Origin: an uncultured Acidobacteriota bacterium
Lineage (GTDB): Bacteria > Acidobacteriota > Thermoanaerobaculia > Multivoradales > SZUA-115
Direction: 5' to 3'
NCBI GenBank assembly: GCA_963805975.1
Contig: CAWDVR010000003.1
Span: forward strand, 128,001 to 192,000
DNA length: 64,000 nucleotides
Shown piece after piece: positions 6,460 through 47,076 of the stretch. Position 1 is the first letter of the stretch; the number at the start of each line of letters is the position of its first letter. The notes beneath the pieces were generated by a model. It saw only the letters and a list, made by a program, of their open reading frames with translations. It had not been told where the DNA came from and did not search any database. A program made the position numbers and the translations under genes.

Positions 6460-7257
6460 TCACGCCAGCGCTTCCGCGACGTCGGCCCAGGAGACCCCCT
6501 GCTCCGCGAGCGCCGCGTGCAGCTCGGCGAGCTGGCGGTTGATGCGGCGGTAGAGGCTCTTCTGATCGAGCGTCAGCGCGGTGGCGATCGAGCTCACGGC
6601 ACGGTCGTCGCAGAAGCGCATGCGGAGAATCAGCCGATCCTCGGCCGGCAGTGAGGACAGGGCGCGGGCGAGCGCCACCTGCACCTTCCTCGCCTGCCGT
6701 GCGTGCTCGCGGTCCCGCAGGCCGTCGTCGGCGCGCTCTCGCGCCGCCTCGCTGGCCAGGTTCAGACCGCCTTCCTCCCGGCGCCGGCCGCGGTGGGGAA
6801 GGCGCCCGGCGAGATCCAGGAGCTCCGCCTCCGAGATCGTCACCTGGTAATTGGTGACCAGCAGGGCGACGGCCTCGCGGGGGCTGTGGCCTTCACGGTA
6901 GAGGAGGCGGTCGAGGAGCACCCCCACCTTGCCGGCCCGGCGCGCCTCGGCGGACGGCCGCCACTTCCCCCACTTCTCGATGCGCCAGTCGAGGAACAGT
7001 CGGCCGACCACGGTGGTGAGGTAGGTGCGCAGCGTGCTGCCGCCGCGGAACTTGCGGAGGATCGCATAGCCGTTCTCGCACAGGCGCACGCTTGCACGCG
7101 ACTTGAACTCCTCGGCCTCCTCGGGCGCCAGCGCGTGGCGCTGGCACACCCAGCGGATGACGCTCTCGACGAGCGGCCAGTTTGACTCGAGGCGGGCCTT
7201 GAAGTGGCCCTCCTCGAGCTGTGCTTCTCCGCTCTCGGTGACCGGCTCGGCGAGCAT
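6460..7257 (-). CDS. ECF-type sigma-70 factor with internal insertion
   Basis: Region 2 (ILRKFRGGSTLRTYLTTVV) and region 4 (LPAEDRLILRMRF..IATAL..SLYRR); GGAGG RBS before ATG 7257. Confidence 0.85.
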   Translation of the reverse strand: MLAEPVTESGEAQLEEGHFKARLESNWPLVESVIRWVCQRHALAPEEAEEFKSRASVRLCENGYAILRKFRGGSTLRTYLTTVVGRLFLDWRIEKWGKWRPSAEARRAGKVGVLLDRLLYREGHSPREAVALLVTNYQVTISEAELLDLAGRLPHRGRRREEGGLNLASEAARERADDGLRDREHARQARKVQVALARALSSLPAEDRLILRMRFCDDRAVSSIATALTLDQKSLYRRINRQLAELHAALAEQGVSWADVAEALA

Positions 7258-7427
7258 CGCGACCTCCCCCCGCGCGGCAAGACTCGTGATTGCTTGTCTT
7301 CGGGGCTCATCACCTATAACGTCGCACTCCGCAAAAGCGAACAGGGGACGATGTCGAAGCTGGGGCAAGTGTCTTGCAGGGCCGGTGGCAGCAGCCGCGA
7401 CCTCGAGCTCCCAGTGGACGGAAAACG

Positions 7428-8084
7428 GTGAGCAGCCACTTTGTGCAGCCGCCCAGGACGGATCGGCCGCCCTTGCCGGAAGGCGAGCGGACCCTCGATG
7501 GCGAAGCATCGATCGGTTTTGCCGGCGAGTCGACGCTCGATCTCCTCGCGCGCATCCGGGTTGGTGACCGCGCAGCCCGGGACGCCCTCTGCCGGCGCCT
7601 CTACCCCCGCCTGACCCGGTTTGCCCACAGCCAGCTTCCGCCCCAGGCTCGCGATCTCAAGGAGACCGGCGACCTGGTCAACGAGGCGCTGTTCAAGACC
7701 TTCTCCAACCTCGATTCCTTCGAGCACCGCCACCAGGGCTCGCTGTTCGGCTATCTGTGCCGGGGCGTGCGCAACCAGATCAACGACGAGATCCGTCGCG
7801 TCTCCCGCCATCCGCCGCGCGAGGTGATGGCCGGCAGCGTGATCGACCACCGACCGTCGCCCGTCGAGCTGGCGATCGGCCGCGAGCAGCACGAGCTCTA
7901 CGAGCGCGCCCTCGCCCAGCTCTCGGACACCGACCGCGAGGCGATCTTCCTCAGCCTGGAGCTCGACCTGAGCAACAGGGAGATCGCCGAGGCCCTGGGC
8001 AAGCCCTCGGCCGACGCCGCCCGCATGACCGTGAACCGTGCCGTGCTCCGGCTCGGCCGGCTCCTCGAGCGTGCCGGTGTCTGA
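7428..8084 (+). CDS. ECF sigma factor (kinase-associated)
   Basis: DLVNEALF region 2, ALAQLSDTDREAI..SNREIAEALG region 4; stop overlaps the kinase start; start codon uncertain. Confidence 0.85.
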   Translation: MSSHFVQPPRTDRPPLPEGERTLDGEASIGFAGESTLDLLARIRVGDRAARDALCRRLYPRLTRFAHSQLPPQARDLKETGDLVNEALFKTFSNLDSFEHRHQGSLFGYLCRGVRNQINDEIRRVSRHPPREVMAGSVIDHRPSPVELAIGREQHELYERALAQLSDTDREAIFLSLELDLSNREIAEALGKPSADAARMTVNRAVLRLGRLLERAGV

Positions 8085-10629
8085 GCCCACCCGCGAGCCG
8101 GACGACGATCCGGCGCTGCTCGAGGTCGCCGGCTCGGTGGCGGGCGGCGAGGCGGTCGACTGGCAGGCCGCCGAGGCCCGGGCCGGCGCCGAGCGCGGCC
8201 CCGTGGTGCGGGCTCTCCATCTGATCGCGAAGATCGCCGAGGTCCACCGCAGCCTGCAGCGGACCGTGATCCTGGAGGACAGCCACTCCTTTGCGGCCCC
8301 CTCCGGGGACGCCCCGCCCATGCCGGCGCGCTGGGGCGACCTCGAGCTACTCGAGCGGGTGGGGGAGGGGGCCTCGGCCGACGTCTACCGGGCGCGGGAC
8401 ACGCGCCTCCAGCGCGAGGTCGCCTTGAAGCTCCTGCGCCGCCCGCCCAGCCGTGGCGAGACCGGCAACGAGGCCGTGCTGCGCGAAGGGCGACTGCTGG
8501 CCAAGGTGCGGCACGCGAACGTCGCCACGGTCTACGGGGTCGACGAGCACGACGGCCGGGTGGGCGTGTCCATGGAGTACGTGCGCGGCAAGACGCTCAG
8601 CCGGCTGATCGCCGAGCAGGGCCCGCAGAGCGCGCGCGAGGCGAGCGGCATCGGCATCGATCTCTGCCGGGCGCTCGCGGCGGTGCACGAGAAGGGCGTG
8701 GTGCACCGCGACCTCAAGGCGCAGAACGTGATGCGGGAGGAGGGCGGGCGGACGCTCCTGGTCGACTTCGGCATCGGCCGTGACCTCGAGGCCGAGGACG
8801 ACGGCGCGCCGTCGCTCTCCGGCACGCCGCTCTACCTGGCGCCGGAGATCTTCGACCGCCGGCCGGCCACGGCGCAGTCCGACCTCTACAGCCTGGGGGT
8901 GCTGCTCTTCTACCTGGTGACGGGCAAGTTCCCGGTGATGGGCGGCTCGCTCGCCGAGCTCCGCGCCGCACACCAGGAGGGACGGGCAGCGCTCCTCCGC
9001 GACCTGCGCCCGGACCTCCCTGCCTGGTTCGTGCAGACGGTGGAGCGGGCGCTGGAGCGCGATCCCGCGGCTCGCTTCCGCAGCGCCGGACAGATGGAGC
9101 GGGCGCTCGAGGCGGGCGCCGGGTCCGTGCGCGGTGCGGCAGTGGACGAGACCTCCAGCCGTCGCCGCGTCCTCCGCTGGCCCTGGCTCGCGGCCGCTGC
9201 TCTCGCGCTCGTCGCTGCCTCCGCCTGGTGGATCCAACTCGGCAGCCCCGGCGCCAGGGCACAGGAGCACTACGAAGTGGCGAAGCGGCGCTACGACGAC
9301 GATGATGTCCAGGGCGCGCTGGCAGCGGGTATGAAGTCTGTCGAGATCGATCCCACGAACCCCCGCACGCAGAACCTCATGGCCATGATCTATGGCGCAG
9401 CGGGCCAGCTCGACAAGGAAAAGACCGCTGCCGACCTGGCTCGCCAGTTCGCCGGCCGGTTGCCGCCGGCCGAGAGGCACGAGATTGCCGGCAACAGCCT
9501 CCTGGTGCAGCTCGATTACGAACGAGCCGCCGCGGAGTACAGCGAAGCGTTTCGGCTGGACCCCAAGGCCGAGTTCTCCCGGCGTCAGCTGGCGATGATC
9601 TACGGGAAGCTCGGCAAGCCGAGGAAGGCGGTGGAGCTGCTCGCCGGCTCGTGCAGTGGCGGCCAGGCGAACTGGGTCAGCTGTGGCGAGCTCTGCCTCG
9701 CCACAGCGCAGGACCGTGGCGTCGAGGCCGGGATCGAGCTCCTCGAATCGCTGCCCGCCGAGCTGCGGGAGACCAAGAGCAACGTTGGCTGGTCGGAGGG
9801 GGTGCTCTGGCTCGCGGCCGGCAATCTCGAACTGGCCGAGCGGTCCTTCGCGCGCCTCGCGCAGGCCGACGACACCTATGCCAGCGAAGGCTCGATGTTC
9901 CTTTCCGAGGTCGATCTCCTCCGAGGCCGCCTCCACGAGGCGAAGCAGGACCTCACCAAAGGCTTCGTGGTCGACACCCGCGGTGAGCAGGTCGTGGTGG
10001 GATGGCGCCGTCGGCTGGCCCTAGCCGAATCTGGACCTGGTGCTGAGAGAGGAGGACGAAGCGCGGCGTCAGCTGGATCAGCTCGGCGACGCTTCCCAAG
10101 GTACCCAAGGCGGCGCGGACGATCGCGCACCAGGCGCTGCTCGAGATCCAGGCCAAGAGGCTCGACCGCGCATTGACCCTCGAGCCGCGACCTCGACGGG
10201 ATGCAGCGCCTCTACGACGGCAACGCCACACTCGCCGCCTTGGCGCTCCAGGTGCGAGGGAGCCTCGCCCTCGCGCAGAATGATGCAACGAGGGCGCGCG
10301 ACGATCTCGAAGCGGCCCTGCGCTACCGGGACGAGCCCTTGATCCGAAACGAGCTAGCGCGAGCGCTCGAGAAGTTGGGGCAGGTCCGCGATGCACTGGT
10401 CATCCGCCAGGAGATCGATCGCCTGAAAGTAACCTTGCTCAATGAGAACCTCGCTCTCCTCTGGGTCACCAATCTCGCCGACCTCGCCCGCCTTCACGAG
10501 AAGCTTGGTCAGACCGAGGAGGCGACGAAGCGCTACGAGCAGTTCCTCTCGTATTGGGGCGAGAACGCCCCTGATCTACTCCTCGTGAAAGAGGCCCAGG
10601 CCGCGCTCGACAGGCTCTCCTCGAAGTAG
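8077..10629 (+). CDS. Hanks-type Ser/Thr protein kinase, TM helix and extracytoplasmic TPRs; three apparent +1 frameshifts at about 10030, 10090 and 10182
   Basis: GEGASADV, VALK, HRDLKAQN, DFG, GTPLYLAPE motifs; TM WPWLAAAALALVAASAWW; helical sequence continues through frames 2 and 3 back into ORF 10201-10629. Confidence 0.8.
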
Positions 10630-10846: not shown

Positions 10847-11569
10847 ATGTCCACGGGAAATCCATTCTGGGTCGTCACGGGTCGCGCCTGCTGCGACCGC
10901 GGCTTTCGCAGGGACTGTGTGGCGCGTCTGGGAGGTCGGGTCACCCCGACTCTCGCGCCCCTCCACGACGAGGTGGAACAGCTCAAGAAGCACGTGCTGG
11001 GCACACTCAGCTATCGGCTCGACAACAAGGGCCTCTACTACTTCTACGACCTCATCTTCCGCGGCCACGAGGCCGAGCCGAGCCTCGACCGCGGCCCGCT
11101 GGCGGAGCTGGGCCGGCTGGCGGCCGGCGCCAACCTCGGCCGCGAGCTCTCCGACCCCGCCCACTGGCAGCCCACCTGGGAGGTGATCGGCCTCGCCTGC
11201 ACGGACCGCATCTTCCGCGCCCAGCTCCACGAGGCCTCGGGGGAGCCGGAAGCGTTCCGCGCCGAGCTCGAGGACGGCATCCCGAGCTTCGCGGTGGGCG
11301 AGGAGTCGCGCGAGGTGCTGCGCGAGCTCTTCTCCCAGGTCGAGACCATGCAGGTCCTGCGTTCGATCCACGTGCTGGCCTGGCGCATCCCCTACGCCGA
11401 GCCGGCCGAGCGCGCGGCCTGCGAGACCGCGATCCGCCACGACGACTACGTCTTCATCCGCCAGGACGTGGCCATGGACCTCTTCCTGCTCCAGACCGCG
11501 GTCAAGCCGGGCGCCCAGCGCGATCTGCTCCAGGCCAGCCTGGACGAGAAGCTCGCCCTCGCCGCCTAG
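10847..11569 (+). CDS. Hypothetical protein with two NHLP/Os1348-like motifs
   Basis: GAGAGG RBS before ATG 10847; strong GC3 codon bias; repeats WVVTGRACCDRGFR and WEVIGLACTDRIFR. Confidence 0.7.
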   Translation: MSTGNPFWVVTGRACCDRGFRRDCVARLGGRVTPTLAPLHDEVEQLKKHVLGTLSYRLDNKGLYYFYDLIFRGHEAEPSLDRGPLAELGRLAAGANLGRELSDPAHWQPTWEVIGLACTDRIFRAQLHEASGEPEAFRAELEDGIPSFAVGEESREVLRELFSQVETMQVLRSIHVLAWRIPYAEPAERAACETAIRHDDYVFIRQDVAMDLFLLQTAVKPGAQRDLLQASLDEKLALAA

Positions 11570-11695
11570 CGTGGCCCTCCAACCTCGCTCACCTCACTTC
11601 CCGCGCCGGCTCCCCTCGGGGCCCGGCGCGGCTTTCCGAGGTACCCGTGCGCCGCGCGCTAGAATCGCGCCCTGGCTTCCGAGCCCCAGCCCGCC

Positions 11696-12292
11696 ATGGA
11701 CCTCACCCCGGGCGAGACCCTCCATCGTGTCCTCGCCGGCGACCGCGCAGCCGCGGCCTGGCTCTACGACTCGTTTGCCGAGCGCCTGTTCCGCCGCCTG
11801 CGGCAGCGCTACGGCTACCTGGGCGAGCCGGAGCTCGAGGATCTGCTCCAGGAAACGTTTCTCCTGGTGCTGCGCAACCAGCGCCGGGTGCTCGCCGCCT
11901 TTCTCGATCGCCGCCCGGCGCGGCCGATCGAGAGCGGGGAGATCGAGCGCTTCCTGTGGGACGAGGCCTGCGGCCTGGCGAGCAACCGGCGGCGCTCGGC
12001 GGCGGTGCGCAAGGTGGTGCCGCTCGCCGACTACGAGGCCTCCGCGCCGTCCCGCGGCGAGTCCGAGTCGCGCGCCCTGGACCGCGACCTCCTGCTGCGG
12101 CTCGCCGCCTGCCTCAAGCAGAGCGGCGCACGGCTCTTCCTCTACTACAAGCTCCGTTTCCGCGACGGCCTGACCCCCGACGAGATCGCCACCGTCACGG
12201 GCTGGTCGCTCAAGGCCACCTACAAGCTGCGGCAGGATCTCAACCAGGCGGTGCTGCACTGCGCCGAGCGGCTGGGCCTGGTCGGAGGCTAG
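11696..12292 (+). CDS. ECF sigma factor
   Basis: EDLLQETFL region 2; YKLRFRDGLTPDEIATVTGWSLKATY region 4 HTH. Confidence 0.85.
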   Translation: MDLTPGETLHRVLAGDRAAAAWLYDSFAERLFRRLRQRYGYLGEPELEDLLQETFLLVLRNQRRVLAAFLDRRPARPIESGEIERFLWDEACGLASNRRRSAAVRKVVPLADYEASAPSRGESESRALDRDLLLRLAACLKQSGARLFLYYKLRFRDGLTPDEIATVTGWSLKATYKLRQDLNQAVLHCAERLGLVGG

Positions 12293-12316
12293 TGTTCCCG
12301 AGCCACCAGATCGGAG

Positions 12317-12339
12317 TGTCATCCTGAGCGCAGCGAAGG
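12317..12339. repeat. REP-like element (TGTCATCCTGAGCGCAGCGAAGG)
   Basis: Resembles the GTCATCCTGAGCGCAGCGAAGGATC repeat family as I recall it; single, 3'-degenerate copy here. Confidence 0.55.
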
Positions 12340-12371
12340 CTCCCGCTCTCGGGACGCTTGCCGTCGCCGGG

Positions 12372-15179
12372 TTGCTGGCGCTCGGAGGCTGTGCCGGGGC
12401 CGGCGAGCCTCTGCCGGCGGAGGTGGCGGTCGTGCTGCGGGGCCACAGCGAGGGCGAGGTGCGCGCCGACGGTGGTGTCACCCCGCTCTACCTCAGCCCG
12501 CGGCAGCCGATCGAGCTCTGTCTCGCCGCCCCGCGGGATCTCAACACCAGCCAGTGGCAGGCGCGCCTGTGGTTCTCGGGCGGGCGCCGAGGCGCCGGGG
12601 CCTTCGTTCCGCCCACGGTGCGGGCCGGCACCACCCTCTGCTTCCGGGCCCCGGAGGCGGCGTTTGGGGTCCACCGGCTGTGCGGGGACGTGGAGAACCG
12701 GCTCGACAGCCGGCACTACCGCCTGCCGTGCCAGCCGCTCGCGGTGGCCGAGCGCCCGGCCTTCCGGGCTCTCGCGGCCGAGCGCGGCACGCTGGCCGGC
12801 TCGCTCGGCGGCGGCAGCTTCGCGGCCTGGCTGCGGGGGGCCGAGTATCTGCGCGCGCGGGCCGCGAGCCAGGGCTGCCCGTTTCTCGCCGTGGAGGTCG
12901 ACCTGGTGGTCGCCTACGTGGCGCGCCAGGCGGGAAGCGCGGCCACCCTGGCCGAGGCCCGGCAGCGCCTCGCGGCCCTGCCGCGGTGGCTCGGCGAGCC
13001 GGCGGCGAGCTGGCTCGCCGCGGCGGCGGCGCTCGAGCGGGCGAAGCTCGATCTCGCCCTGGGCGAGGCGCGAGACGCCTGGCAGGATCTGCGGCAGGCC
13101 GCGACCGGCTTCAAGCGGGTGGCCGAGCCCGAGGCCTTCACGGTCGCCATCACCCAGTCGGAGCTCCTGGCCGAGCTCGGCGCCCAGGCGGACGCCGTGG
13201 CGCTGGTGCGCGGCGAGCTGTCCGACTGTGAGCGCTTCCCTTGCGCCGTGGATCTCCTGCCCAGCCTCCAGACGCAGCTCGCCTGGCTCCTGCTCCTCGA
13301 CCCGGACGCCGGCGCCACCGAGCTGGCCGAGGCACGGGCGCAGCTCGAGCGCGCGATCGCCAGCCCGGCCTGGGAGCAGGGTCCCCTGGAGCTGGAGCTG
13401 GCCAACGGCCACATCAACCTCGCCCATGTCGTTCTGCGCCAGGGCGGCGATCCGCAGCCGGACCTCGAGCATGCGCGGCGGCTCCTGGCTGCCAACCCGA
13501 GCCCTTCGGCGCGCCGGCGCTTCCTGCTCGCCTGGGTCGAGCTCCTCGCCGGGCTCGAGCGCCTGGGCCGCGGCGACGCGGCCGGGGCGCTCGCGGCCTG
13601 CGCGCCGCTCGCCGCGGAACGGGGGACACCGCGGCTCGCAGTCTGGGGCCTGTCCTGCGTCGGTGCCGCCGAGCGCCGGCAAGGCGACCTGCTCGGCGCC
13701 CGGCGCAGCTACGCGCGGGCGCTCCTCGCCTACGAGCTGGCGAGCCCGGCCGAGCTGCGCCAGAACCTCGTCCTGGGTCCCAGCCAGCGGGCCGACGATT
13801 ACTACCAGGCGGCGCGGGTGGAGGTCGAGCTGGGGCGGCCCGAGGAAGCCTGGTCGCTCCTCGCCGGGCTCGACCGCCTCGCCGCCGACGAGCGGGAGCG
13901 CCAGTGCCGCGCGCGGGCGGAGAGCCCGGCGCTCGCCGCTCGTTGGGAGGCGGCCGACACACGGCGCTCCGAGCTCCTGGCCGAGCTGCTCGCGCTCGAG
14001 GCCCCGACCTCCCGCCAGCGGCGCCAGGAGCTCGCGCCGGTGGTGCGCGACCTCAAACGCGAGGCGCAGGAGATGGCCCGGGCGGTTCCCCGTTGCTCGG
14101 CCGCGATCGACACTCCACGCGAATCCTGGGCCGGGTTCCGTGCCGTGCCGCTTCCCGAGGAGGTTCTGCTGCTCGAGCGCACGGCCGGCGGCAGGGTCCA
14201 CCTGGCACGCCGGACGCCGCTCGCTCGCGGCGCGCTCCAGGGCCTCTCGGCCGAGGTCTCTGCCGCCCTCGACCGTCGGCAGATGGACGATGGCGAGTGG
14301 CAGCGGCTCGTAGCGCCCCTGGCCCGTGCCCTGGTGCCGCCCGCGCCGGAACGGCTGCACCCCCTGACAGCCTTCGCTCTGCACGGCGCGTTGCAGAACG
14401 TTCCCCTGGCCGCGCTGCCGGTGACGGCTAACGCGCTGCGCGGTAAGGCTCAGCGCTGGCTGGCCGATTGGACGACGCCCGTCCAGGTGCCGGCGGAAGG
14501 CGAGCGGGACGCCGGGGCAGGCGGGACCGAGACCTGGTTCCTGGTCGATCCCGGCGGCAACCTGGCCGGCGCGCGCTCCATGGTCGACACCTACCGGCGC
14601 CTGTTCCCGGCGGCGCGGGTGCTCACCGGCCGAGCGGCCACCGTCGAGGCCCTGACCGGCGGCCTCGGTCGCGCCGGCCGGCTGCACCTGGACGCCCACG
14701 GGCTCTACGACCCGGCCTTTCCGGAGCTCTCGAGCCTCGAGCTGGCGGACGGCCGGCTGATGGCGAGCGAGCTGGCGAGGCTGCCGGTGCCCCGCGAGCT
14801 GGTGAACCTCTCGGCCTGCAAGACGGGCCGCTCGCCGACCACGGCCGACAGCGGCCGGTACGGGCTCGCCGGCCTCTTCGCGCAGCGGGGCACGGCCTGG
14901 GTGGTGGCCAGCCGGGGAAACCTCGACGACGCTCTGGCGCGCGAGTTCAACCAGGCGTTCTACGCGGCGCTCGCAGCCGGCCGCGGCGTGCCCGCGAGCT
15001 ACGAGGAAGCGCTCGGTACGGTGCGCCGGCGCTGGCCCGCCGCGGCCTGGGCCGGCCTGCTGCTGCTCTCGGCCGGCCCAGGCTGCGAGGCCGCCAGGAA
15101 AGACACCGACGGGAAAAACGCCGACGGAAAAAACGACGTCGTAATGACTCCTATCTCTGTCGTAGGGGGTAGAGGATGA
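12372..15179 (+). CDS. CHAT-domain (caspase/HetF-like) protease with TPR-like helical region, probable lipoprotein; true start likely further upstream
   Basis: LHLDAHG (His) and VNLSACKTG (Cys) dyad, HGALQNVPLAAL, WAGLLL; N-terminal LAVAGLLALGGC lipobox; frame open back to 12174. Confidence 0.85.
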   Translation: MLALGGCAGAGEPLPAEVAVVLRGHSEGEVRADGGVTPLYLSPRQPIELCLAAPRDLNTSQWQARLWFSGGRRGAGAFVPPTVRAGTTLCFRAPEAAFGVHRLCGDVENRLDSRHYRLPCQPLAVAERPAFRALAAERGTLAGSLGGGSFAAWLRGAEYLRARAASQGCPFLAVEVDLVVAYVARQAGSAATLAEARQRLAALPRWLGEPAASWLAAAAALERAKLDLALGEARDAWQDLRQAATGFKRVAEPEAFTVAITQSELLAELGAQADAVALVRGELSDCERFPCAVDLLPSLQTQLAWLLLLDPDAGATELAEARAQLERAIASPAWEQGPLELELANGHINLAHVVLRQGGDPQPDLEHARRLLAANPSPSARRRFLLAWVELLAGLERLGRGDAAGALAACAPLAAERGTPRLAVWGLSCVGAAERRQGDLLGARRSYARALLAYELASPAELRQNLVLGPSQRADDYYQAARVEVELGRPEEAWSLLAGLDRLAADERERQCRARAESPALAARWEAADTRRSELLAELLALEAPTSRQRRQELAPVVRDLKREAQEMARAVPRCSAAIDTPRESWAGFRAVPLPEEVLLLERTAGGRVHLARRTPLARGALQGLSAEVSAALDRRQMDDGEWQRLVAPLARALVPPAPERLHPLTAFALHGALQNVPLAALPVTANALRGKAQRWLADWTTPVQVPAEGERDAGAGGTETWFLVDPGGNLAGARSMVDTYRRLFPAARVLTGRAATVEALTGGLGRAGRLHLDAHGLYDPAFPELSSLELADGRLMASELARLPVPRELVNLSACKTGRSPTTADSGRYGLAGLFAQRGTAWVVASRGNLDDALAREFNQAFYAALAAGRGVPASYEEALGTVRRRWPAAAWAGLLLLSAGPGCEAARKDTDGKNADGKNDVVMTPISVVGGRG

Positions 15180-16033
15180 GAGCGATCGACCCGGAAGCGC
15201 TGCTCGCGAAGCTGGCGGAGGCGGACACGGAGGATGAGGACGGGGATCTGGCGGCGGCCCACGGCGCCGCTTCGCCCTCCCCGCCCACCGCCGTCTCGCC
15301 GACGGAAGCGGTTCTCGTGGCCTACCGGGAGGATCGGCTCTCGGCCGCGGAGGCGGAGCGGATCGCGGGAGCCCTGGCGAGCGATCCCGCCTTGCGACGG
15401 CGGCTGATCGCGCTCGGCGGGATGACCCGGCCACAGCTCTCGCCGCGGGTGCGCGAGGCCGTCCTCGCGGCTGCCGGGACAGCGCCCCGGCCCGGTCTCC
15501 GACCCCGGCTGAGCCGTCGGCGTGCCGCCTGGGTGGGCGCCGCGGCTGCCGCCGCGCTCCTGGCCGTCGCGGTCTTGCCCTGGCTCCTGGGGCGGCAGGG
15601 CGGTACGCCCGCGAGACCGCTGCCCGAGTACGCGGTCGAGGTATCGGGCCTCGCCGCCGAGCGCGACGGGCCGCGCGCCGGGACCACGGCCGCGGCGCTC
15701 GCCGGCACGCGGGTCCGGATCGTCGCCACGGCGGAGGGCGAGGCCGTGGCCGGGGTGGAGTACGGGCTCTACCGGCAGGCAGGCGACCGCTTCGAGCGGC
15801 TCCCTGCCGGCGGGCCGATCCGCTTCGACGCCACGGCCGAGGCCGCGGTCTTCGAAGCCGAGGCCGCGGCCCTCGTCGGCAGGACGCCCGGCAGGCACAC
15901 TCTCTGGGTAGTGGTCGCCCGGCACGGAGAGCTGCCGGCCGGGGCGGAGCTGGCGGCCGGGGGCGACCTGGCGCGGGGCGGCTCGCACCGGATGATGCCG
16001 GTGGTGATCGTGCTCGGGGACGATCGGCAGTGA
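15176..16033 (+). CDS. Putative membrane-anchored anti-sigma factor
   Basis: ATGA overlap with CHAT stop; N-terminal LVAYREDRLSAAEAERIAGAL resembles an anti-sigma domain without Zn ligands; one TM helix; beta-rich C-terminal domain. Confidence 0.65.
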   Translation: MRAIDPEALLAKLAEADTEDEDGDLAAAHGAASPSPPTAVSPTEAVLVAYREDRLSAAEAERIAGALASDPALRRRLIALGGMTRPQLSPRVREAVLAAAGTAPRPGLRPRLSRRRAAWVGAAAAAALLAVAVLPWLLGRQGGTPARPLPEYAVEVSGLAAERDGPRAGTTAAALAGTRVRIVATAEGEAVAGVEYGLYRQAGDRFERLPAGGPIRFDATAEAAVFEAEAAALVGRTPGRHTLWVVVARHGELPAGAELAAGGDLARGGSHRMMPVVIVLGDDRQ

Positions 16034-16056
16034 GAGAACGGGTAAGGAGGAGAGCC

Positions 16057-17778
16057 ATGCGAGAGACGAAAAAGCGCCTACGCGCACCGCGCGCGGTCGT
16101 GCTCGGGCTGGTGCTCGTGGCCGGCGCGGGCCGGGAGGCGGCGGCGCAGCTCGTGACCTGGGAACTCTTCGATCGCGACAAGGAGCCGGCCGAGCAGAAC
16201 GACAAGCGGGTCACCTGCGGCCGCTACGGCGTGTTCCACCTGAAAGTGGAGAACCCGGTGCCGGGCGCCGGGTCGATCGAGCCGTACCCGCCGCGGAACA
16301 AGGGCATCGAGGTCCCGGCCCGCTTCCCGAGCTACGCCGATGCCGCCGCGCCCGTGCCGCCGGCCGGGAGCCTCTCGACTGCGGCCGATGCATGGTTTCC
16401 CTGCGACGAGGGCGGCTGCTTCGCGTCGCCCTTCTCTTTTTCTCCGGGCCAGCCGTGGGTGGCGGTCATCGATTGGGACAGTCCGCACGGCTGGAGCGTG
16501 GGCTGGACCATCCGCCAAGTCACGGGCCCCTCGGTGGGCCTCGCCCTCTTCCCGCTCGCGGACCCGGAGCTCGAGTCGGTCTATCGGCGGGGCGAGACGG
16601 ACGCGCACCTCCTCGCCCAGCTCTGCAGACTGACCGAGCTGGTCGAGCACCACGGCCTGACGCCGCCGGTGGCGGTCAACATGAGCTTCGGGCGGCTGGC
16701 GCGGTCGGAGGACAAGCTCCCGGCCGGGATCTGCAACCCCGATCGGCTCGCCTGCCAGGTCGCCTTCGTCGTCGAGCACCTGCGGCAGATCTCCCGGCCG
16801 GAGCTCCCGGCCCCCGGCACGGTTTTCGTGGCCGCCGCGGGTAACCACGGGCAGCTGCTCTACCCGGCCGCGGCTCCCGCCGTGGTCGCCGCCGGCGCCA
16901 TCGATCTCGCCGTCTTCTGGGCGAACCGCGGCGCGGTCCCCTCCTGGGAGACCCCCCATCTCACGGGCCAGGCCGCGGCGCTGATGCCCGGCTACGGGAT
17001 CTGTCTCTTTCCGGGGCCCGCGCCCCAGGATCAGCGCGGCCACCCCGTGCCGCCCGGCAGCTCCTACGCCGCCGCCACCTTCTCCGGCTTCCTGGTCGCG
17101 CCGCTTCTTGCCGGCGAGCTGGGCGATCCCCTGCTGCCCGTCCTGTGGCAACCGGTGGCGACCTGTACCAGCCAGGGGTGCAGTTACCAGGTCCTGCACG
17201 GCGAGCGGCCGATGCTCGGGGTCGGCCCCGGCCTCGATCTCCTCCTGGAGCAGACGCGCACCGGCAGGCCCAGGTGCCGCCCGCCCCACGAGGGCACCGT
17301 CCAGGCAAACGGCCTGCTCGGCGCGGGCCTCGCCGCCAGCCAGTCGATCCCGCGCCTGTCCTTCGACGACGTGGCGGCCGCGGACCGCAAGCAACCGGCC
17401 CCCGGCGCCGACCCCTGCGTACCCTGCCGGGGCCACAACCCGCCGCCGCCGCTCAACGTCTGGGCCGTCCGCGGGCTCGCCACCCACGCCACGTTGGCGA
17501 GCCTGGTGGGGCTCGAGCTGGATCTCTCGTTCGCCGGCGCCCTTCCCGGCGACTACACCCTTCTCGGACTCTTCCTGCGGGTGGGCGAGACGTTCTACCC
17601 GGTCTCCGTGAGCGGCGGGCTCGGCCGGCTCCAGAGCGGTGCCGTCGACCGTCTGGTGGTGCCCGACACCGGCAGCCTGGTCCTCAGGGGAGAGCAGCCG
17701 TCGCTGGTCTTCGTGCTGCGGGACGACCTCGAGAGCGGGGCCGAGTTCTGGACCTCGATCCCGATCCTGATGCAGTAG
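16057..17778 (+). CDS. Secreted divergent S8 (subtilisin-like) peptidase
   Basis: AAGGAGG RBS; signal peptide; VAVID, HG, VNMSFG, FVAAAGN, GSSYAA motifs in subtilase order. Confidence 0.75.
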   Translation: MRETKKRLRAPRAVVLGLVLVAGAGREAAAQLVTWELFDRDKEPAEQNDKRVTCGRYGVFHLKVENPVPGAGSIEPYPPRNKGIEVPARFPSYADAAAPVPPAGSLSTAADAWFPCDEGGCFASPFSFSPGQPWVAVIDWDSPHGWSVGWTIRQVTGPSVGLALFPLADPELESVYRRGETDAHLLAQLCRLTELVEHHGLTPPVAVNMSFGRLARSEDKLPAGICNPDRLACQVAFVVEHLRQISRPELPAPGTVFVAAAGNHGQLLYPAAAPAVVAAGAIDLAVFWANRGAVPSWETPHLTGQAAALMPGYGICLFPGPAPQDQRGHPVPPGSSYAAATFSGFLVAPLLAGELGDPLLPVLWQPVATCTSQGCSYQVLHGERPMLGVGPGLDLLLEQTRTGRPRCRPPHEGTVQANGLLGAGLAASQSIPRLSFDDVAAADRKQPAPGADPCVPCRGHNPPPPLNVWAVRGLATHATLASLVGLELDLSFAGALPGDYTLLGLFLRVGETFYPVSVSGGLGRLQSGAVDRLVVPDTGSLVLRGEQPSLVFVLRDDLESGAEFWTSIPILMQ

Positions 17779-31529: not shown

Positions 31530-34500
31530 ATGTCTCGCCGACTCGTTCCAGTGCTCGTCGCCCTGATTCTCGCTCTCTTCGCAGCTCCCGTCATCGCACA
31601 GCCTCTGCTCAAGTCCGCCATCCAGGTGGACCCGGGCAACACCAAGCAGACCGGGCAGACCTTTGGCTATCGGCTGACCTACAACTGCAGCAGCACCTCG
31701 GGGCCTTGTCTCAATGCCGAGGTCGTGGACCTGCTGCCGATCGAGGTGCAGTTCCTGTCGACGGTGCCGGCCAGCCCCACCGGCGACGTGGCCGCGATCA
31801 ACGTCACGCCGAACTTCATGGGCTCGGGCCGCACGCGAGTGCAGTTCGTGCTCATCCCTTCGCTGCCGGCGGGCAACAGCGGCGACCTCCTGATCAACGT
31901 CCGTTTCCCCAACGGCTCGACCCCGGACGGCACGGTGGCGACCAACACGGCGGACGGCATCAACCTGGCGACGCCGCCGGGCACCTTCACGACGCCGCCG
32001 GTTGCGGTGACCGCCGTGGCCACCGTCCAGGTGGCGCTGCAGAAGACCCTGCTCACCACTCCCGCCAACCTGGACCTGCCGGAGAGCTATCGCCTGCGGA
32101 TCTCGGTGAGCGGTAACAACGGCTCTCTCAACCTCACGGCCATCGGTCCGGTGACCGATACGCTGCCGCCGGGCACGGTGTTCAGCGGCGCCACGCCGGC
32201 GGCCGACTGCCAGCCCGGCTGCGTCGGCACCACGCCGGCGACGATCACCTGGACGAGCCCGTGCTCGGTGCCCCTGGCGGCGGGAGGCAACTGCGACATC
32301 ACGGTCAACGTCGTCTTCCCGAGCGCCACCTTCCCGAGTGGCACCAACGTCACCAACAGCTTCACGGCGGACGGCACGCCGCTCGGCGAGCCGGCGCAAA
32401 ACTTCGGAGTGGGCCAGATCACTCACCCGGTCACCACCTTCGTGCCGAGCCCCGGCGCCGGCTTCGCCAAGAACGTGACTGGCGGCAGCCCCAACCCGCC
32501 GACCCTCAACCAGACCTTCAGCTACGAGCTGGTGCCGAGCAACAACGGCAACGTGCCGCTCGACAACATGGTGGTGGTGGACACGCTACCGGTCGAGATG
32601 CAGGTGGCGAGCGTCACCACCGGCGCCTACAGCGGGCTGGCGGACTTCGCTGTCGGCGAGGGCGTGCGGGTGAGCTACGAGAAGAACACCGCGCTCGGCG
32701 TCTTTACTCTCTGGGGCAGCTCGCCCAACACCATCACCAACACCACGCTGACCACGCCACCCCCCGGCTTGGGCGCGGGCGAGTACCTGACCCGCATCCG
32801 CTGGGAGTATGGCCAGGCGCAGCCTGGAATGAGCGCTTCCGCCCGGCCGCTCATCACCGGCCAGATCGTCAACCCGGACAACGCCGGCGGCCCGGTCGCC
32901 TTCGGCGACACGATCCAGAACTGTGCCGATCTGTCGGCGGTCTACACCGCCGGCCCCACCAACGTGAACCAGAGCGCCTGCCGCAGCTTCGTCTTGAGCG
33001 GGCCGTTCGTGCAGCTCAACCCGGCGAAGGAGAACCTCTCGGGAGGCGGGCCGTTCAACCCCGGGCAAACCGTGTCCTGGCGACTGCGGGTGCGCAGTGA
33101 TCCACGCTCGAGCGACCCGGTGGCACTGGAAGATCTGGTGGCCACCGACCTCCTGCCCGTGAATTTGATCTTCTCGAGCTGGACCTTCGACGACCAGGCG
33201 ACCGGCCTGCCGGCGCCGCAGGTCTTCGACCAGATCCCGAACTTCGCCGGCACCGGCCGCACCCTGCTGCGCTGGACCTGGAACGCCGGCAGCGGCAGCC
33301 TGGGCGTCAACCAGCAGGTGTTCATCAACGTCTCGACCACCATCCGCAACGGCGCCCCGGCCGGCAGCCTCGCCAACGACTTCACGCTCGAGAGCGACGC
33401 TCCCGGCCTCGCGCAGCGCTGCACCGGGAGCTCCCAGGCCGACCCGCTCGACTACGACGGCGACGGCGACACGGCCGAGACCCTGTGCCGCGCCACCGGC
33501 ACGATCACCGTGGCGCCCATCGCCCAGCTCATCTCGAGCAAGACGATCCGCGGCACCTGCGACGGCGGCTTCGGCTCGACCTCCGCCGGCACCTTGATCG
33601 GCGGCGAGCTCGAGTACCGCCTGCGGGTCCAGAACGTGGGCACCGTGCCGATGCAGAACTTCGTGCTGATCGACATCCTGCCCTTTGTGGGCGACACCGG
33701 GGTGCGCGACACCAATCCCCGCGGCTCGCTGTGGACCCCGCTCCTCACGGCACCCATCACGCCGCCCGCCGGCACGGTGCTCTACTACTCGACCTCCGGC
33801 AACCCGTGCCGCGGCGAAGTGGGCGGCCCGGTGACGGGCTGCGATCCGCCGAACTGGACCACGGTTCCGCCGAGCCCGATCACCAGCGTCCGTTCGTTCA
33901 AGGTGGAGTTCGGCGCCCGCGTGGTCGGGGCCTTCGACTTCATCGAGTTCTTCTTCTCCATGACCACCCCGGGCAACGTGCCGCCCGGCGACCCGGCCTT
34001 CAACTCCTTCGCCTACCAGGCGGACCGCGCGGACGGTTTGGGCTCGCTCGCCGCCGAGCCGCAGAAGGTCGGAGTGACGCTGGGAAGCTGCGACGCCGCG
34101 AGCCTCGGCGACTTCGTGTGGGTGGACACCGACGGCGACGGCACCCAGGACGACGGCCCCACCGGCGTCAACGACGTCTTGGTCCAGCTCTCGATCCCCG
34201 GCGGGGACGGCCTGCCCGGCACCTTCGACGACGTGCCCCTGGCCTCGACGGTGACCGCCGATGGTCCCGACAGCGCGCCCGGCTGGTACCGCTTCCCGGG
34301 CCTCGCTCCGGGCAGCTACCGGGTCTGCATCGAGGAGCCGCCGACCTTCGATCTCACCACCCCCGACCAGGGCGCCAACGACAGCCTCGACTCCGACGCC
34401 AACCCGGCCAACGCCTGCGCACCGCTCACCGTGCTGGCGGTGAACGAGGACGATCCGACGATCGACTTCGGCCTGGTGGCTACGGGCGAGGCGGCGCTCG

Positions 34501-37500
34501 GCAACTACGTCTGGTTCGACCGCGACAGCGACGGCGTCCAGGACGAGTCGCCCTTCGACGGCGCCAATGGCGTCTCCGTGCGGCTCTTTGCCGACGACGG
34601 CGACGGCACCCCCGAGCCGGGGAGCGGCGACGCGCTGGTGGCCAGCACGGTCACGGCCGACGACGTCTACGGCCAGCCCGGCTACTACCTGTTCGACGGT
34701 CTGGTGCCGGGAGTGCCGTACTTCGTGCAGTTCATCCTGCCGGCTTCCGCCACCGGCTTCACCACGCAGAACGCCGGCGGCGACGACACGGTGGACTCCG
34801 ACGCCGCCCCCGGCGACGGCACGACCCCGGTGGTGACCCTCGCGTCCGGCGAGCTCAACCCCACGATCGACGCCGGCCTGGTGACGCCGACGGGCACGCT
34901 GGCCCTCGGGGACCAGGTGTGGCTCGACAGCGACAACGACGGCGTCTTCGAGCCGGAGAACGGCGAGCCGGGAATCGACGGCGTGCGCCTGGATCTCTAC
35001 CTCGACGACAACGGCGACGACCAGCCCACGCTGGACGAGTACCTGGCCACCACCACCACCGCGACCGTGAGCGGCTTCGCCGGGCTCTACCGCTTCTCGG
35101 GCCTGGCGCCCGGCACCTACATCGTGGTGGTCGCGCCCGAGAGCTTCGCCGGTGGCGGCGCCCTCTCCGGCCTGGTCACCAGCACCGGCAACGACCCCGC
35201 GCCCGATCCGGACGACGACGTCAACGGGGACGACAACGGCACCGACCTGGGTGCGCTCATCGCCAGCCGGCCGGTGACCTTGACCGACAACGGTGAGCCG
35301 ACGTCCGAGGACGGTAACAACGACACCAACCTGACGGTGGACTTCGGCTTCATCCCCGGCGCCGCGGTGGCCGAGCCGGAGCACGACTACGGCGATGCGC
35401 CGGACACCGGGGCCGGCGCCACCAACGGCGACTACAACACCACCGCCCTCGACACCGGCGCCTTCCACAGCGTCGGCGTGGCGGGCGCGCCGTTCCTGGG
35501 CGCCTGCGTGGACGCCGACGGCGGCTTCAACCAGAACGTGCAGGCGAGCGCGGACGACAACAGCGGTTTCGGCACGGTCGTCGGGTCCTGCGACGTCGAG
35601 GACGACGACGAGGACGGCGTGGCCTTCACCGGTCCCTTCACGCCCGGCGCCACGGCCACCTTCAGCGTCACCGCCGGCGGGCCGGCGGCCTGCTCGCTCG
35701 ACGCCTGGGTGGACTGGAACCAGAGCGGCATCTTCGGCGACGGCGCCGGCGAGCAGATCGCGACCTCGCTCGCCGTGCCCACCGGCCCGCCCACCGTGCT
35801 CACTCCGGGCGTACCGGCCGGCGCGGTGCCGGGCCTCACCTACGCCCGCTTCCGCTGCTCGACGGCGGGGGGCCTTTCGCCCACCGGGGCGGCACCGAAC
35901 GGCGAGGTGGAGGACTACCTCGTGGGAGTGGTGGGCACCGATTTCGGCGACGCCCCGGCTTCCTACGGTACGCAGGGAGCGGGCGCGGCGAGCCATACCA
36001 TCGACCCGATCTCGCCGCTGCTCCTCGGCGGCTGCGTGGACACCGAGGCCGACGGCCAGCCCGACGTCTCTGCCTCGGGCGACGACAGCGCCGCGGGCAC
36101 GAGCTCGATCGGAGGCTGCTTCGACGACGAGGAGGCCGTGGCCTTCCAGTCGGCGCTCACCGCCTGCCAGAGCGCCCAGGTCACGGTCACGGCCGGGGCG
36201 GCGGGCCTGCTCGACGCCTGGATCGACTTCAACCTCGACGGCGACTTCAACGACCCCGGCGAGCAGATCTTCGACGCCCAGGCCTTGACCTCCGGTGCCA
36301 ACGCGCTCGGTTTCACCGTGCCGTGCACCGCGGTCGAATCGCCGACCTACGCCCGCTTCCGGCTCTCCTCGCACGGGCGTGGCGGGCCCGACCGGCGCGG
36401 CGCCGGACGGCGAGGTGGAGGACTACGCGGTCAACGTCGGCGACGTGGACTTGGGCGACGCGCCGGACACCTACGGCACCACGATCGCGAGCAACGGCCC
36501 CAACCACGGCACCACGGTCGGCTTCACCCTGGGAGCGACGATCGACAGCGAGAGCGACGGCCAGCCCTCGGTGGGAGCCAACGGCGACGGCGCCGACGAG
36601 GACGGCGTCACCCTGCCCGCCGGCGGGTTGATCGCGTGCTCCACGACGAACGTCACGGTCAACCTCACCAACACCGCGGGCGTCGAGCAGCCCCTGCTCG
36701 ATGCCTGGGTGGACTTCGACGGCGACGGCGCCTTCAACGACCCGCGCGACCGCATCGCCAACGCTCTGGCTCTCACCGCCGGCGCCAACGTGGTGGCGGT
36801 CAACGTGCCGTGCGACGCCGGACCGGCTGCCTCCTACTCGCGCTTCCGGCTGAGCTCGACCGGGGTCGCGGGCCCCGGCGGCCCGGCCCTCGACGGCGAA
36901 GTGGAGGACTGGGTGGTGGGAGTGCAGGGCCTGGACTTCGGCGACGCGCCGGACCCGACCTATCCCACTCTCCTGGCATCGAACGGCGCCCGTCACGTGG
37001 TGGGTGTCGGCCCCAACCCGACGCTGGGCGCGGTGGTGGACACCGAGCCCAACGGCCAGCCGAACCCCGGTCTCACGGGCGACGACGTGCAGGAGGCCGA
37101 CGACGAGGACGGCGTGGTCTTCCCGGCCGTGATGGTGCCGGGCACGGACGGCACGGTGCAGCTCTCGACCGGCGCCACCGGCGGCACGGTCTCCTGCTGG
37201 CTCGACTTCAACCGTGACGGCGACTGGGGTGACGCCGGTGAGCAGATCGTCACCGACGCGGTGATCGCCGCCGGCACCACCACCAGCCGGACCTTCCCGG
37301 TGACGGTGGGCTCGCCGCAGGGGAGCTCTCCCGCCCGCTGCCGCATCAGCTCGCGGGGTGGGTTGGGGGTGACCGGCCAGGCGAGCGACGGCGAGATCGA
37401 GGACCACCTGGCACCGATCGGCGTCGAGGAGCCGCTGATCGGCGTCGCCAAGCAGCTCGTGGAGATCGTCCGCCTGGGCGGTACGCAGTACCAGGTGGAG

Positions 37501-38001
37501 TTCGAGATCCGCCTTGCCAATCTGGGCAACGTGCCGCTCAGCGACGTCCAGGTGATGGAAGACCTCGCGGCCACCTTTGCCGAGGCGGTCTCGTTCAGCG
37601 TGCTCTCGCTCACCAGCACGGATCTGGTGGTCAACCCGGCCTTCGACGGTGCCGGCGACACCTCGCTCCTGGCCGCCGGCAACAGCCTAGCCGTGGGTGC
37701 GAGCGGCTCGATCTCGCTCCTCGTTCAGGTCGAGAGCGGCGGCGAGACCGGCCCCTACACCAACCAGGTGCTGGCGAGCGGCACCAGCCCGGCCGACGTG
37801 CCGGTGACCGACAGCTCGCAGGACGGCGAGGAGATCGACCCGGACGACGACGGCGACCCGACCGACAACGACGATCCGACGATCTTCTTCCTGTCGCTCA
37901 CCGCCATCGAGATCCCGACCCTCGGCACCTGGGGCCTGATGCTCCTGGTGGCTCTGCTGGCCCTGGTGGCGATGCGGCGGATGAGGAGGGTGCAGGCGTG
38001 A
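31530..38001 (+). CDS. Giant secreted surface protein (about 2150 aa): DUF11-like, SdrD B-like and 4 GEVED domains, IPTL-CTERM; one +1 frameshift at about 36372
   Basis: Signal peptide; three LG(D/N)xVWxD SdrD-B repeats; GEVEDY/GEVEDW/GEIEDH; C-terminal IPTLGTWGLMLLVALLALVAMRRMRR. Confidence 0.85.
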
Positions 38002-44653: not shown

Positions 44654-45250
44654 TCAGCCCTCCCCGCCCGCCCCCGCTTCTTCCTTGACGATGGACCTGG
44701 GGAGCCCGCTCCCTTGGAGGGCGATGGCGTCGGCGAGCGCCTGGTCGAGCTGGCCGCGGAAGCGGGCGAGGACCAGGCTTTCCTCGCTGAGCGCAAAGAC
44801 GTAGACGCTCTCGATGCTCTTGCCGCGCTGCCGGTAGAGCACGGAGCCGGTCTCGGTCCCGTCCTGGAAGCGGGCGGCGACCCGCCAGCCGCGGCGGTCG
44901 GCGAGCCGGCTGACGGCTTCCGACCACTCCTGCCGGAGTCCCGGGCGCAGGCCCTCGACCTCGTAGACGGCGACCTCGACGCCGGAGAGATGGCTCATCA
45001 GCTCCGCGGTCTGGCGGGCCTCGTCGTCCCCTTCGTGCTCGCCGCCGGCGCGGATGATGCTCCGGGCGATCGCCATCGACAGGCGCCCGAGGTGCACCTG
45101 GACCTCGGGCCGGACCTCGACACTGGGCAAGGCGCGCGCCACCTCGTGGCGCATCGGATCGAGGGTCGGGGCCCAGAACAGGCAGCCGCTCGAGGCCAGC
45201 GCGAGGCCGAGGACGAAGAGGAGGCGGGCGGTGGGGCGGACCTTCTCCAT
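44654..45250 (-). CDS. DUF4252-like lipoprotein
   Basis: Lipobox LASSGC; GVEVAVYE..GW..LVLARFRG pattern; operonic with the paralog. Confidence 0.7.
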   Translation of the reverse strand: MEKVRPTARLLFVLGLALASSGCLFWAPTLDPMRHEVARALPSVEVRPEVQVHLGRLSMAIARSIIRAGGEHEGDDEARQTAELMSHLSGVEVAVYEVEGLRPGLRQEWSEAVSRLADRRGWRVAARFQDGTETGSVLYRQRGKSIESVYVFALSEESLVLARFRGQLDQALADAIALQGSGLPRSIVKEEAGAGGEG

Positions 45251-45261
45251 GGCGGGGCTCC

Positions 45262-45900
45262 TCAGGGCTCGTCCTGCGGTGGCTTCTCGGCGGGCAGCTT
45301 CTTGCCACCGGCGTTGGCGTCGATCTGTCCCTGAGCGGCGGCCAAGCCCTGGATGTTGAACCGCTGGCCGATGCTGCCGATCTGGGCGGGGTCGACCTCG
45401 CCGGCGATGTTGATGAAACCGAACTGGTGGTCGGCATCGACGAAGAGCGCGGTGAGGCCCTGGATGCGGTTGCCCGCGCTCTTCAGGTAGATGTAGTGGA
45501 TGGTGTCGCCGTCCCGCAGCCACACCACGCGCTGCCAGCCCCGGCTCTCGAGCAGCGAAGCGTTCTTCGCCACCCGCTTGCGGATCTCCGCCAGGTCCGT
45601 CGCCTTCGGCTTGTAGAGCTGGAAGACGACGGACTTGATCTTGGCGAGCGCCGACGAGAGCTCGGGGTCCGCGGCCTTCGCCGCCTCGGCCACGAACTGC
45701 ACCAGGGGACCCTGGATGTTGACCTCGACCGTCAGGTCCTCCTCGCGGTCGTAGATGTCGAGCTTGGTCACGTCGACGAAACCCGGCTCCCCGGCCAGCG
45801 CCGCGGAGGGAGGAGGGGCCTGGGCCCCGGCCGGCTGCGTGCCTGCCAGAAGCGGGACGGCTGCCAGGAGCAGGGCGAAGGACAGGAGTCGGTTGCTCAT
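45262..45900 (-). CDS. DUF4252-like secreted protein
   Basis: Signal peptide; VEVNIQGPL..GWQRVV..FINIAGEVD. Confidence 0.75.
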   Translation of the reverse strand: MSNRLLSFALLLAAVPLLAGTQPAGAQAPPPSAALAGEPGFVDVTKLDIYDREEDLTVEVNIQGPLVQFVAEAAKAADPELSSALAKIKSVVFQLYKPKATDLAEIRKRVAKNASLLESRGWQRVVWLRDGDTIHYIYLKSAGNRIQGLTALFVDADHQFGFINIAGEVDPAQIGSIGQRFNIQGLAAAQGQIDANAGGKKLPAEKPPQDEP

Positions 45901-46568: not shown

Positions 46569-47076
46569 AGCTGTGCACCTCCCGGAGATGCTCGCGCAGG
46601 CGGCGGCGCGCGCGGTGAAGGTAGGTCTTGACGGTGTTCAAGGGCAGCTCGAGGGCGTCGGCGATCTCCTGGTAGCTGCGTCCCTGGACCTCGCGCAGCA
46701 GAGCGATCGAACGGTACGGCTCGTCGAGCGCCGCGACGGCGCGCTTCAAGAGCCGGTCCAGGTCCTGCGCGGCGAGGCTCTCCTCCGGGCTCTCCCCACC
46801 GTCCGGGGCATCGAGGGTCGCGGCGTCGATGCCGGTCTCGAAGATGCGCCCGCGGGTGCGGCGGCTGCGCAGGCAGTCGAAGCAGGCGTTGCGGGTGACG
46901 CGGGCGAGCCACGCCCCGGCTTTCTCCGGCTCCACGGTCTCGATGTTGCGCCACAGCCGGAGCAGCACCTCTTGGGTCACGTCCTCGGCCTCCTCCTGGC
47001 TCCTCAGGTAATAGGTGGCGAAGCCGAAGACCCGGTGCTGATGTACTTCCACCAGCTCGTGGAACCGGCTCAGCAT
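46552..47076 (-). CDS. ECF RNA polymerase sigma factor (RpoE/SigW-like)
   Basis: AEDVTQEVLLRLW, SYQEIADALELPLNTVKTYLHRAR. Confidence 0.92.
   Translation of the reverse strand: MLSRFHELVEVHQHRVFGFATYYLRSQEEAEDVTQEVLLRLWRNIETVEPEKAGAWLARVTRNACFDCLRSRRTRGRIFETGIDAATLDAPDGGESPEESLAAQDLDRLLKRAVAALDEPYRSIALLREVQGRSYQEIADALELPLNTVKTYLHRARRRLREHLREVHSYAQTA

Follow-up and report, generated by a model that had tools for sequence, protein, structure and literature searches.

A conserved cassette of sigma factor, CHAT protease, anti-sigma-like protein and subtilase-fold protein in uncultured Acidobacteriota, with a candidate cleavage site

Bacterial CHAT proteases are abundant and their known substrates are few (Csx30 and PatU3). 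Among the closest described systems, DdvS/DdvA of Myxococcus xanthus is reported to combine a sigma factor of the extracytoplasmic function (ECF) type, a single-pass anti-sigma and a periplasmic tetratricopeptide repeat (TPR)-CHAT protein with a His-Cys dyad, the CHAT part being proposed as a site-1 protease that acts before RseP; DdvA is described as one chain that includes an anti-sigma domain of the zinc type, lacks a complete active site and controls a CBASS-CRISPR island (PMC11506125). In the type III-E system of Csx29, Csx30 and CASP-sigma, the TPR-CHAT protein Csx29 is described as cytoplasmic, triggered by RNA-bound Cas7-11, and cleaving a sigma inhibitor (PMC10028731). The CHAT protease HetF of Anabaena cuts the inhibitor PatU3 after an arginine (R117/S118), and in the authors' model PatU3 sequesters the regulator HetZ; PatU3 is also said there to affect cell division via Ftn6 (PMC9457339). 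ECF54 sigma factors of Actinobacteria are encoded beside a subtilase and a TPR-CHAT protein, and proteolytic control has been proposed for them (PMC7826278 supplement; PMC8999054). In DegS-RseA-RseP (PMC10028731) and RsgI/SEAL (PMC10556640), a site-1 cut outside the membrane and a site-2 cut within it are described as leading to sigma release. Here we analyse a window of 64,000 nucleotides from an uncultured Acidobacteriota bacterium (G000:C3:128001-192000, from the 5.36 Mb, 6-contig genome G000) and describe in it a conserved four-gene, probable signalling cassette that encodes a sigma factor, a TPR-CHAT protease, a membrane anti-sigma-like protein and an S8 subtilase-fold protein.

We propose that the cassette works by regulated intramembrane proteolysis, with CHAT as the site-1 protease cutting at Arg163 of the anti-sigma, an M50 protease as site-2 and S8 as a gating partner, a reading to which we give a probability of roughly 0.58. 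The membrane anti-sigma probably retains sigma within the cell, and TPR-CHAT, a predicted lipoprotein, likely makes its cut in the outside part of the anti-sigma, behind Arg163. A second cut within the membrane, by a protease of the RseP type, would free the sigma factor and switch genes on, and S8 likely partners the outside domain of the anti-sigma, setting when the cut can occur. A full-length M50 protease gene is found in the genome (E=1.2e-64). We infer the export of CHAT and S8, the binding of sigma, the first and second cuts and the role of S8 from the features set out below.

Gene order and conservation of the cassette

The five open reading frames (ORFs) considered here all lie on the plus strand (10847-11569, 11696-12292, 12372-15179, 15176-16033 and 16057-17778) and have a third-position GC of 0.90-0.93. 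The CHAT and anti-sigma genes share the letters ATGA at 15176-15179; the anti-sigma stop is followed, after 23 nt, by the ATG of S8 at 16057. An earlier note on this DNA had described this co-oriented layout together with the CHAT catalytic motifs HLDAHG and LSAC, placed at about 14690 and 14815; ORF and motif reading recovered all of these, with the motifs starting at 14685 and 14808. What the DNA shows directly is the order of the genes, the catalytic residues, the motifs of hydrophobic segment and lipobox, the arginine of the anti-sigma, the gene fusions and the M50 gene.

Only CHAT, among the cassette proteins, exceeds a curated family cut-off (Pfam PF12770, E=8.8e-23; 81.6 bits vs a cut-off of 24), and sigma, anti-sigma and S8, which as single sequences fall below theirs, take their identities from profile, fold and motif. 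The TPR-CHAT protease (12324..15179, with a first canonical start, TTG, at 12372) contains TPR matches and a dyad of catalytic His at 14697 and Cys at 14817, both invariant in 33/33 sequences. Its lipobox Cys at 12390 has an aligned Cys in 33 of the 38 sequences that cover the position, the remaining five having a hydrophobic segment without a lipobox Cys. Another four pairs of Cys are conserved (35-38 of 37-38 sequences), as would be expected of disulfides outside the cytoplasm. CHAT is thereby predicted to be an exported lipoprotein with an intact dyad, as the earlier note had it.

The sigma factor (11696..12292, 198 aa) appears to be a divergent ECF-type protein with regions 2 and 4. Alone it matches TIGR02937 at E=1.3e-4 (21.6 bits, below the 42.9 cut-off), and its family profile matches the solved ECF sigma factors 6dxo (best, E=1.9e-5), SigW 5wuq and sigma-E 1or7; the mean column identity over 17 homologues is 57%. 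A clade of in-frame fusions of sigma, hydrophobic signal and TPR-CHAT occurs at six metagenome loci, five of them distinct (L251, L259, L266, L269, L277 and L278), and joining the two proteins through a hydrophobic signal fits a layout with sigma inside and CHAT outside. Lipoprotein processing of such fusions would leave sigma on a membrane peptide.

An S8 query gave matches in 14/60 related genomes, and the 20 loci fetched from it all have the order sigma-CHAT-anti-sigma-S8 to each contig's limit. Searches from the sigma side gave 36 genome and 53 metagenome loci. Once duplicates had been removed by script, CHAT directly follows sigma in 58/60 distinct loci that extend 600 bp or more downstream, and all four genes stand in order in 31 of the 33 that extend 5.5 kb or more; close strains were retained, so that these counts are not independent. 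At one exception, L250, the contig switches to unrelated sequence within the CHAT signal. Relatives of the cassette are mostly Thermoanaerobaculia or Acidobacteriota, the genes that flank it vary between loci, and in the loci examined anti-sigma and TPR-CHAT are separate genes rather than a single chain of the DdvA type. The same genome holds a second cassette with another gene order (sigma, anti-sigma, CHAT, S8) at C1:1476470-1482868 (L072, L084), and its S8 is distant, with D/H/N/S motifs and a P-x-P-x3-P-C-x-x-C linker.

The earlier note had proposed a system of five genes, of which these four stand and the first, gene A (10847..11569), does not. Gene A holds two tandem NHLP-leader-like repeats, the label coming from a match at E=0.09 and the repeated motif W-x-V-x-G-x-A-C-x-D-R-x-F-R. 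Of 60 distinct loci whose upstream sequence reaches 1 kb or more, just one other organism (G001) has it next to the cassette. Its homologue search returned two close relatives only, a protein atlas search gave no usable match, and distant relatives in 4/60 genomes are located elsewhere, one of them following a TPR gene that resembles the tail of a kinase in the window. At L042 the outer neighbours of the window (a methyltransferase before, an efflux adaptor after) are present without gene A or the kinase. Gene A is therefore better seen as a local addition, and we rejected it as a cassette member.

Independence from CRISPR, which the earlier note had also suggested, agrees with the surroundings: no cas-like Pfam or PADLOC match was found in the window genes or in 66 scanned neighbours, and no Cas7-11, Csx30 or Csx31 was seen. 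PADLOC matched none of the five window proteins and 8 of the 66 cassette neighbours scanned (of 87 called), several via common domains (UvrD helicase, methyltransferase, AAA activator). A defence-island context was considered and set aside on these few matches.

A candidate cleavage site in the anti-sigma-like protein

The third cassette gene (15176..16033) encodes a protein of 285 aa with a single hydrophobic helix at residues 116-141 by hydropathy. An AlphaFold-type model gives it N-terminal helices at 44-80, a long membrane helix and an Ig-like beta-sandwich with Ig-fold structural matches. It matches NF052375 below cut-off (E=1.1e-4) and 3hug_B weakly (E=0.3), and its family profile matches anti-sigmas of the zinc type elsewhere in this genome, with E-values between 1e-7 and 1e-9. 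This bears out the single-pass anti-sigma-like protein of the earlier note; the helical N-terminal domain and one transmembrane helix fit a class I anti-sigma.

Arg163 is the sole invariant ectodomain column in 35 sequences, and the residue that follows is S, D, G or A in 34/35. A wider set was made of the query and, out of 7,213 profile hits (one representative per 50% cluster), the 150 best; Arg163 is again the best column there (149/151), with Arg followed by G/S/A/D in 137/151. The Arg is also present in each of 16 metagenome copies. Its two preceding positions vary widely and insertions and deletions come after it. One of the two exceptions, P0152, has the Arg shifted in the alignment. 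The other, P0148, is a 471-aa fusion of sigma and anti-sigma that has lost the Arg and has no CHAT gene separating its halves, which speaks for a link between the Arg and CHAT; the fusion also lends indirect support to the proposed binding of sigma by the anti-sigma. In the model Arg163 follows the first predicted strand, outside the membrane, and residues 163-167 have a pLDDT below 50 and are predicted to be flexible. Arg163-Asp164 (15662..15667) is thus a likely candidate for the CHAT cleavage site, given this conservation and low pLDDT, and gives a specific position to the earlier note's idea that CHAT cleaves the anti-sigma. HetF cleaves PatU3 between Arg117 and Ser118 (PMC9457339) and separase is described as cleaving after Arg (PMC11506125), and because these relatives cut after Arg we consider CHAT the likely site-1 protease.

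The position of Arg163 also bears on an unlikely variant, in which CHAT would cut there constitutively as maturation, with the first beta-strand staying in the Ig sandwich; as in RsgI/SEAL, the halves would then part only when the ectodomain is pulled away by force, by a ligand or by S8. Strand 151-157 does precede the Arg in the model and belong to the sandwich, and the halves of RsgI are reported to remain joined via one beta-sheet (PMC10556640). In the L074 family, however, the Arg sits (by eye) in a linker ahead of a folded domain, where a cut would shed the domain at once, and the known TPR-CHATs are described as inactive at rest until triggered (PMC11506125).

A binding motif would show conservation equal to that of a cleavage site. 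The Arg loop might then serve for docking or as a pseudo-substrate, keeping CHAT inactive or in position, while the real target is S8, CHAT itself or a foreign protein, an explanation that we find quite unlikely. Securin inhibits separase in a pseudo-substrate mode. Control of separase by this inhibitor is described in PMC11506125, and the P-C-V-P-C linker of S8, in a low-confidence region, could be a second ligand. But the residue after Arg is limited to small ones (137/151), which fits a scissile bond, and a conserved anti-sigma needs a release route. We continue to favour cleavage by CHAT after Arg163.

The arginine mark extends beyond this cassette. The genome contains 22 CHAT matches, and 12 of its sigma genes lie within 7 kb of a CHAT, 11 with a transmembrane anti-sigma and one with a kinase instead. 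All 11 of these anti-sigmas have an outside Arg before G, S or D (by eye), ten of them at 10-45 residues past the membrane. The families of three of these CHAT-linked anti-sigmas, with homologues from at most 25 loci each and rows not covering the site dropped, have an Arg column in 20/21, 24/25 and 25/25 and Arg plus a small residue in 20/21, 20/25 and 23/25. The first is a distant relative of the cassette anti-sigma (E=6e-14), and the other two, which cannot be aligned with it in the ectodomain, have a CHAT within about 4.5 kb in 19/20 and 16/20 loci. Against three control anti-sigma families, judged CHAT-free in this genome only, the contrast looks clear at column level and weak for a loose motif search. 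One CHAT-free zinc anti-sigma family (L200-L217) keeps F/Y-x-T-L-S just outside the membrane, possibly the site of another protease. Elsewhere in the genome, a CHAT gene with no sigma nearby lies between two genes with caspase-like N-termini by eye (G000:C3:28489-35731), and two CHAT domains are each spread over two frames (G000:C3:12746-13559 and C6:55536-56355).

We find it tempting to speculate, more tentatively and at somewhat less than even odds, that signalling at the envelope of Acidobacteriota includes a large class so far unrecognised, where every pair of ECF sigma and anti-sigma is served by a site-1 protease of its own, exported, specific for Arg and of the caspase clan. The 11 circuits of this genome would then differ in their ectodomains and all carry an Arg-small cut loop, and in the present cassette an S8-fold protein, active or dead, would be the input module, gating access to that loop.

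Several observations weigh against our reading of the cassette and of its arginine. A preference for Arg is not shared by every CHAT, since Csx29 is described as cleaving behind Met or Leu (PMC11506125). The N-terminus of the anti-sigma has no conserved His/Cys zinc ligands, and zf-HC2 matched 1/20 members. The Arg-less fusion P0148 is a single sequence, and no full-length relatives of it were found. The CHAT-free controls also have Arg columns near the membrane, at best 0.88, 0.78 and 0.63, in what look like patterns of strand or helix; in them Arg followed by a small residue occurs in 7/17, 6/9 and 6/19, and a loose search for Arg plus a small residue anywhere separates poorly (controls 53-74% vs 96-100%). 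At L047, sigma and CHAT have no anti-sigma or S8 adjoining, at L057 sigma stands alone, and the genomes behind the conservation counts are related. Word counts in 36 upstream regions gave GC-rich words only and no shared motif, so autoregulation is not evident. Finally, the CHAT gene starts irregularly in this genome.

The subtilase-fold protein, the start of CHAT and neighbouring genes

The last cassette gene (16057..17778) encodes a protein of 573 aa with a signal-peptide-like N-terminus and a C-terminal beta domain. Pfam S8 matches 16/21 members at E<=0.1 (best 5.2e-10), and the AlphaFold model (mean pLDDT 77) has as its sole Foldseek match below E=0.001 the subtilase PagA (4h6w, E=2e-6, TM 0.52 on target), in keeping with the exported S8 protein of the earlier note. 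The window copy has all four catalytic residues (Asp 16471, His 16486, Asn 16843 and Ser 17062), which across 32 sequences are kept in 32 (D), 29 (H), 28 (N) and 28 (S). Its P-x-P-x3-P-C-V-P-C linker, in the low-confidence region of the model, is kept in nearly all (Cys 31/32). In three cassettes of the 32 (L028, L033 and L035) His, Asn and Ser are all missing, yet the anti-sigma Arg and the other genes are retained, to contig limits. The idea of the earlier note that S8 might make the ligand for CHAT is weakened by these catalytically dead copies. At L071 anti-sigma and S8 are fused in frame and the S8 signal peptide is gone, and at L041 the two are duplicated together; no more such fusions scored among longer proteins, which is weak evidence, and L294 is the same DNA as L071. 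Fusion, co-duplication and dead copies tie S8 to the ectodomain and show that catalysis by S8 can disappear.

S8 might itself be the site-1 protease of the anti-sigma, or merely a secreted output enzyme, while CHAT acts in a separate step. Its triad is intact in 28/32, it is fused to or duplicated with the anti-sigma at L071 and L041, and subtilases are described as adjoining other ECF/anti-sigma pairs (ECF26, ECF33; PMC7826278 supplement). Yet the Arg is retained in the dead-S8 cassettes, and most other CHAT-adjacent anti-sigmas of this genome have the Arg and no S8 of this family was found beside them, which makes this explanation improbable. Because one clade keeps a dead S8, we see S8 as probably a partner rather than the cutter.

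The start of the CHAT gene deserves separate comment. Its frame has no ATG, GTG or TTG ahead of the TTG at 12372, which sits six codons before the lipobox Cys. From an in-frame CTG at 12324, 7 nt after a GGAG at 12313-12316, the frame reads basic and then hydrophobic, giving a signal of 22 residues, so a whole signal peptide would need this CTG as its start. A dispersed repeat, which we take to be REP-like, covers this likely start (12315-12339, plus strand, by blastn): it is 23-25 bp long, has 79 blastn matches in the genome, self included, and often forms close inverted pairs. This copy falls inside the probable signal-peptide coding region. An assembly indel at this point was considered and rejected, as contigs of related strains span the sigma-CHAT junction gap-free; a joint at 12292-12383 in one contig, where two similar short stretches are joined, was not used.

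It is conceivable that the family works as proposed and this copy is impaired, the repeat having displaced the CHAT start so that CHAT is poorly made or lacks a signal peptide. The lack of a canonical start before 12372, the repeat itself and the many homologues that begin CHAT with ATGA or GTGA overlapping the sigma stop all fit such damage. We nevertheless think it very doubtful: the in-frame CTG that would give the 22-residue signal has GGAG 7 nt ahead of it, the junction is kept gap-free in related strains, and the four frames are intact with their catalytic residues present.

An autoregulated promoter was likewise considered and set aside, since only GC-rich words were found upstream and a sigma-70 scan gave 0 sites, though TAGAAT stands at 11661. 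Before gene A, a Ser/Thr kinase-TPR gene (8038-10629) follows an ECF sigma gene (7374-8084) and is split in two ORFs near 10176/10201; a close relative has a single ORF of about 855-875 aa. The split would be a frameshift or an assembly error. Divergent to this pair, on the minus strand, lies the gene of another divergent ECF sigma (6463-7257), after which no anti-sigma was found. Farther along the window are a large SdrD_B/GEVED surface protein in two ORFs with an IPTL-CTERM motif at the end (31551-37998), possibly one split gene, an ordinary sigma/zf-HC2/DUF4252 cluster (44657-47076), and a BlaI-like repressor with a BlaR1/M56 peptidase (47309-49178), a second protease-gated regulator.

Comparison with described systems

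A literature search, with most subscription journals and preprint supplements outside its reach, found no study of this cassette. The earlier note stated that it knew of no characterised example with this composition, and overlooked the two nearest precedents, DdvA/DdvS with its periplasmic TPR-CHAT and ECF sigma and HetF/PatU3 with a CHAT cut after Arg. We see in the cassette a variant form of sigma control gated by a protease, for which one definite cut site is predicted, related gene sets being known in ECF54 and DdvA/DdvS. The site-1 role proposed for DdvA awaits discovery of its signal before testing, according to PMC11506125. In the present cassette the protease is encoded apart from its probable substrate, and one scissile bond is predicted, which would make the caspase-clan site-1 idea testable with two proteins; for about half of this genome's CHAT loci the Arg mark would point to a substrate.

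Judged by analogy, the cassette would work like DdvA/DdvS and Csx29/Csx30, and it lies outside both of these systems and outside ECF54 as described. With DdvS/DdvA it has in common the probable ECF sigma, the single-pass anti-sigma and the predicted extracytoplasmic TPR-CHAT with a His-Cys dyad, and CHAT is proposed for the same site-1 step. It differs in its separate CHAT, a predicted lipoprotein, in an anti-sigma with no zinc ligands and an Ig-like ectodomain, in the added S8, and in that no defence context was seen. ECF54 resembles it in the company of subtilase and TPR-CHAT; in the PMC7826278 supplement that group is 100% actinobacterial and is said to lack an anti-sigma, and its +1 position is taken by a carboxypeptidase-regulatory-like gene. 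The present cassette has CHAT at +1 and a transmembrane anti-sigma at +2, and occurs mostly in Acidobacteriota, which sets it apart from ECF54 as described. Like Csx29, its TPR-CHAT is proposed to cleave a sigma inhibitor, but Csx29 is cytoplasmic, and its partners Cas7-11, Csx30 and Csx31 were not seen at cassette loci. HetF resembles the proposed role of CHAT in cutting an inhibitor after Arg, and no ECF/anti-sigma pair or S8 is described in that account, where 'sigma' is absent from the main text (PMC9457339). The order of events proposed here, an outside site-1 cut, a site-2 cut in the membrane and sigma release, is that of DegS-RseA-RseP and RsgI/SEAL; unlike in those systems, every pair of sigma and anti-sigma would be encoded together with a cysteine protease of the caspase clan that is dedicated to site-1.

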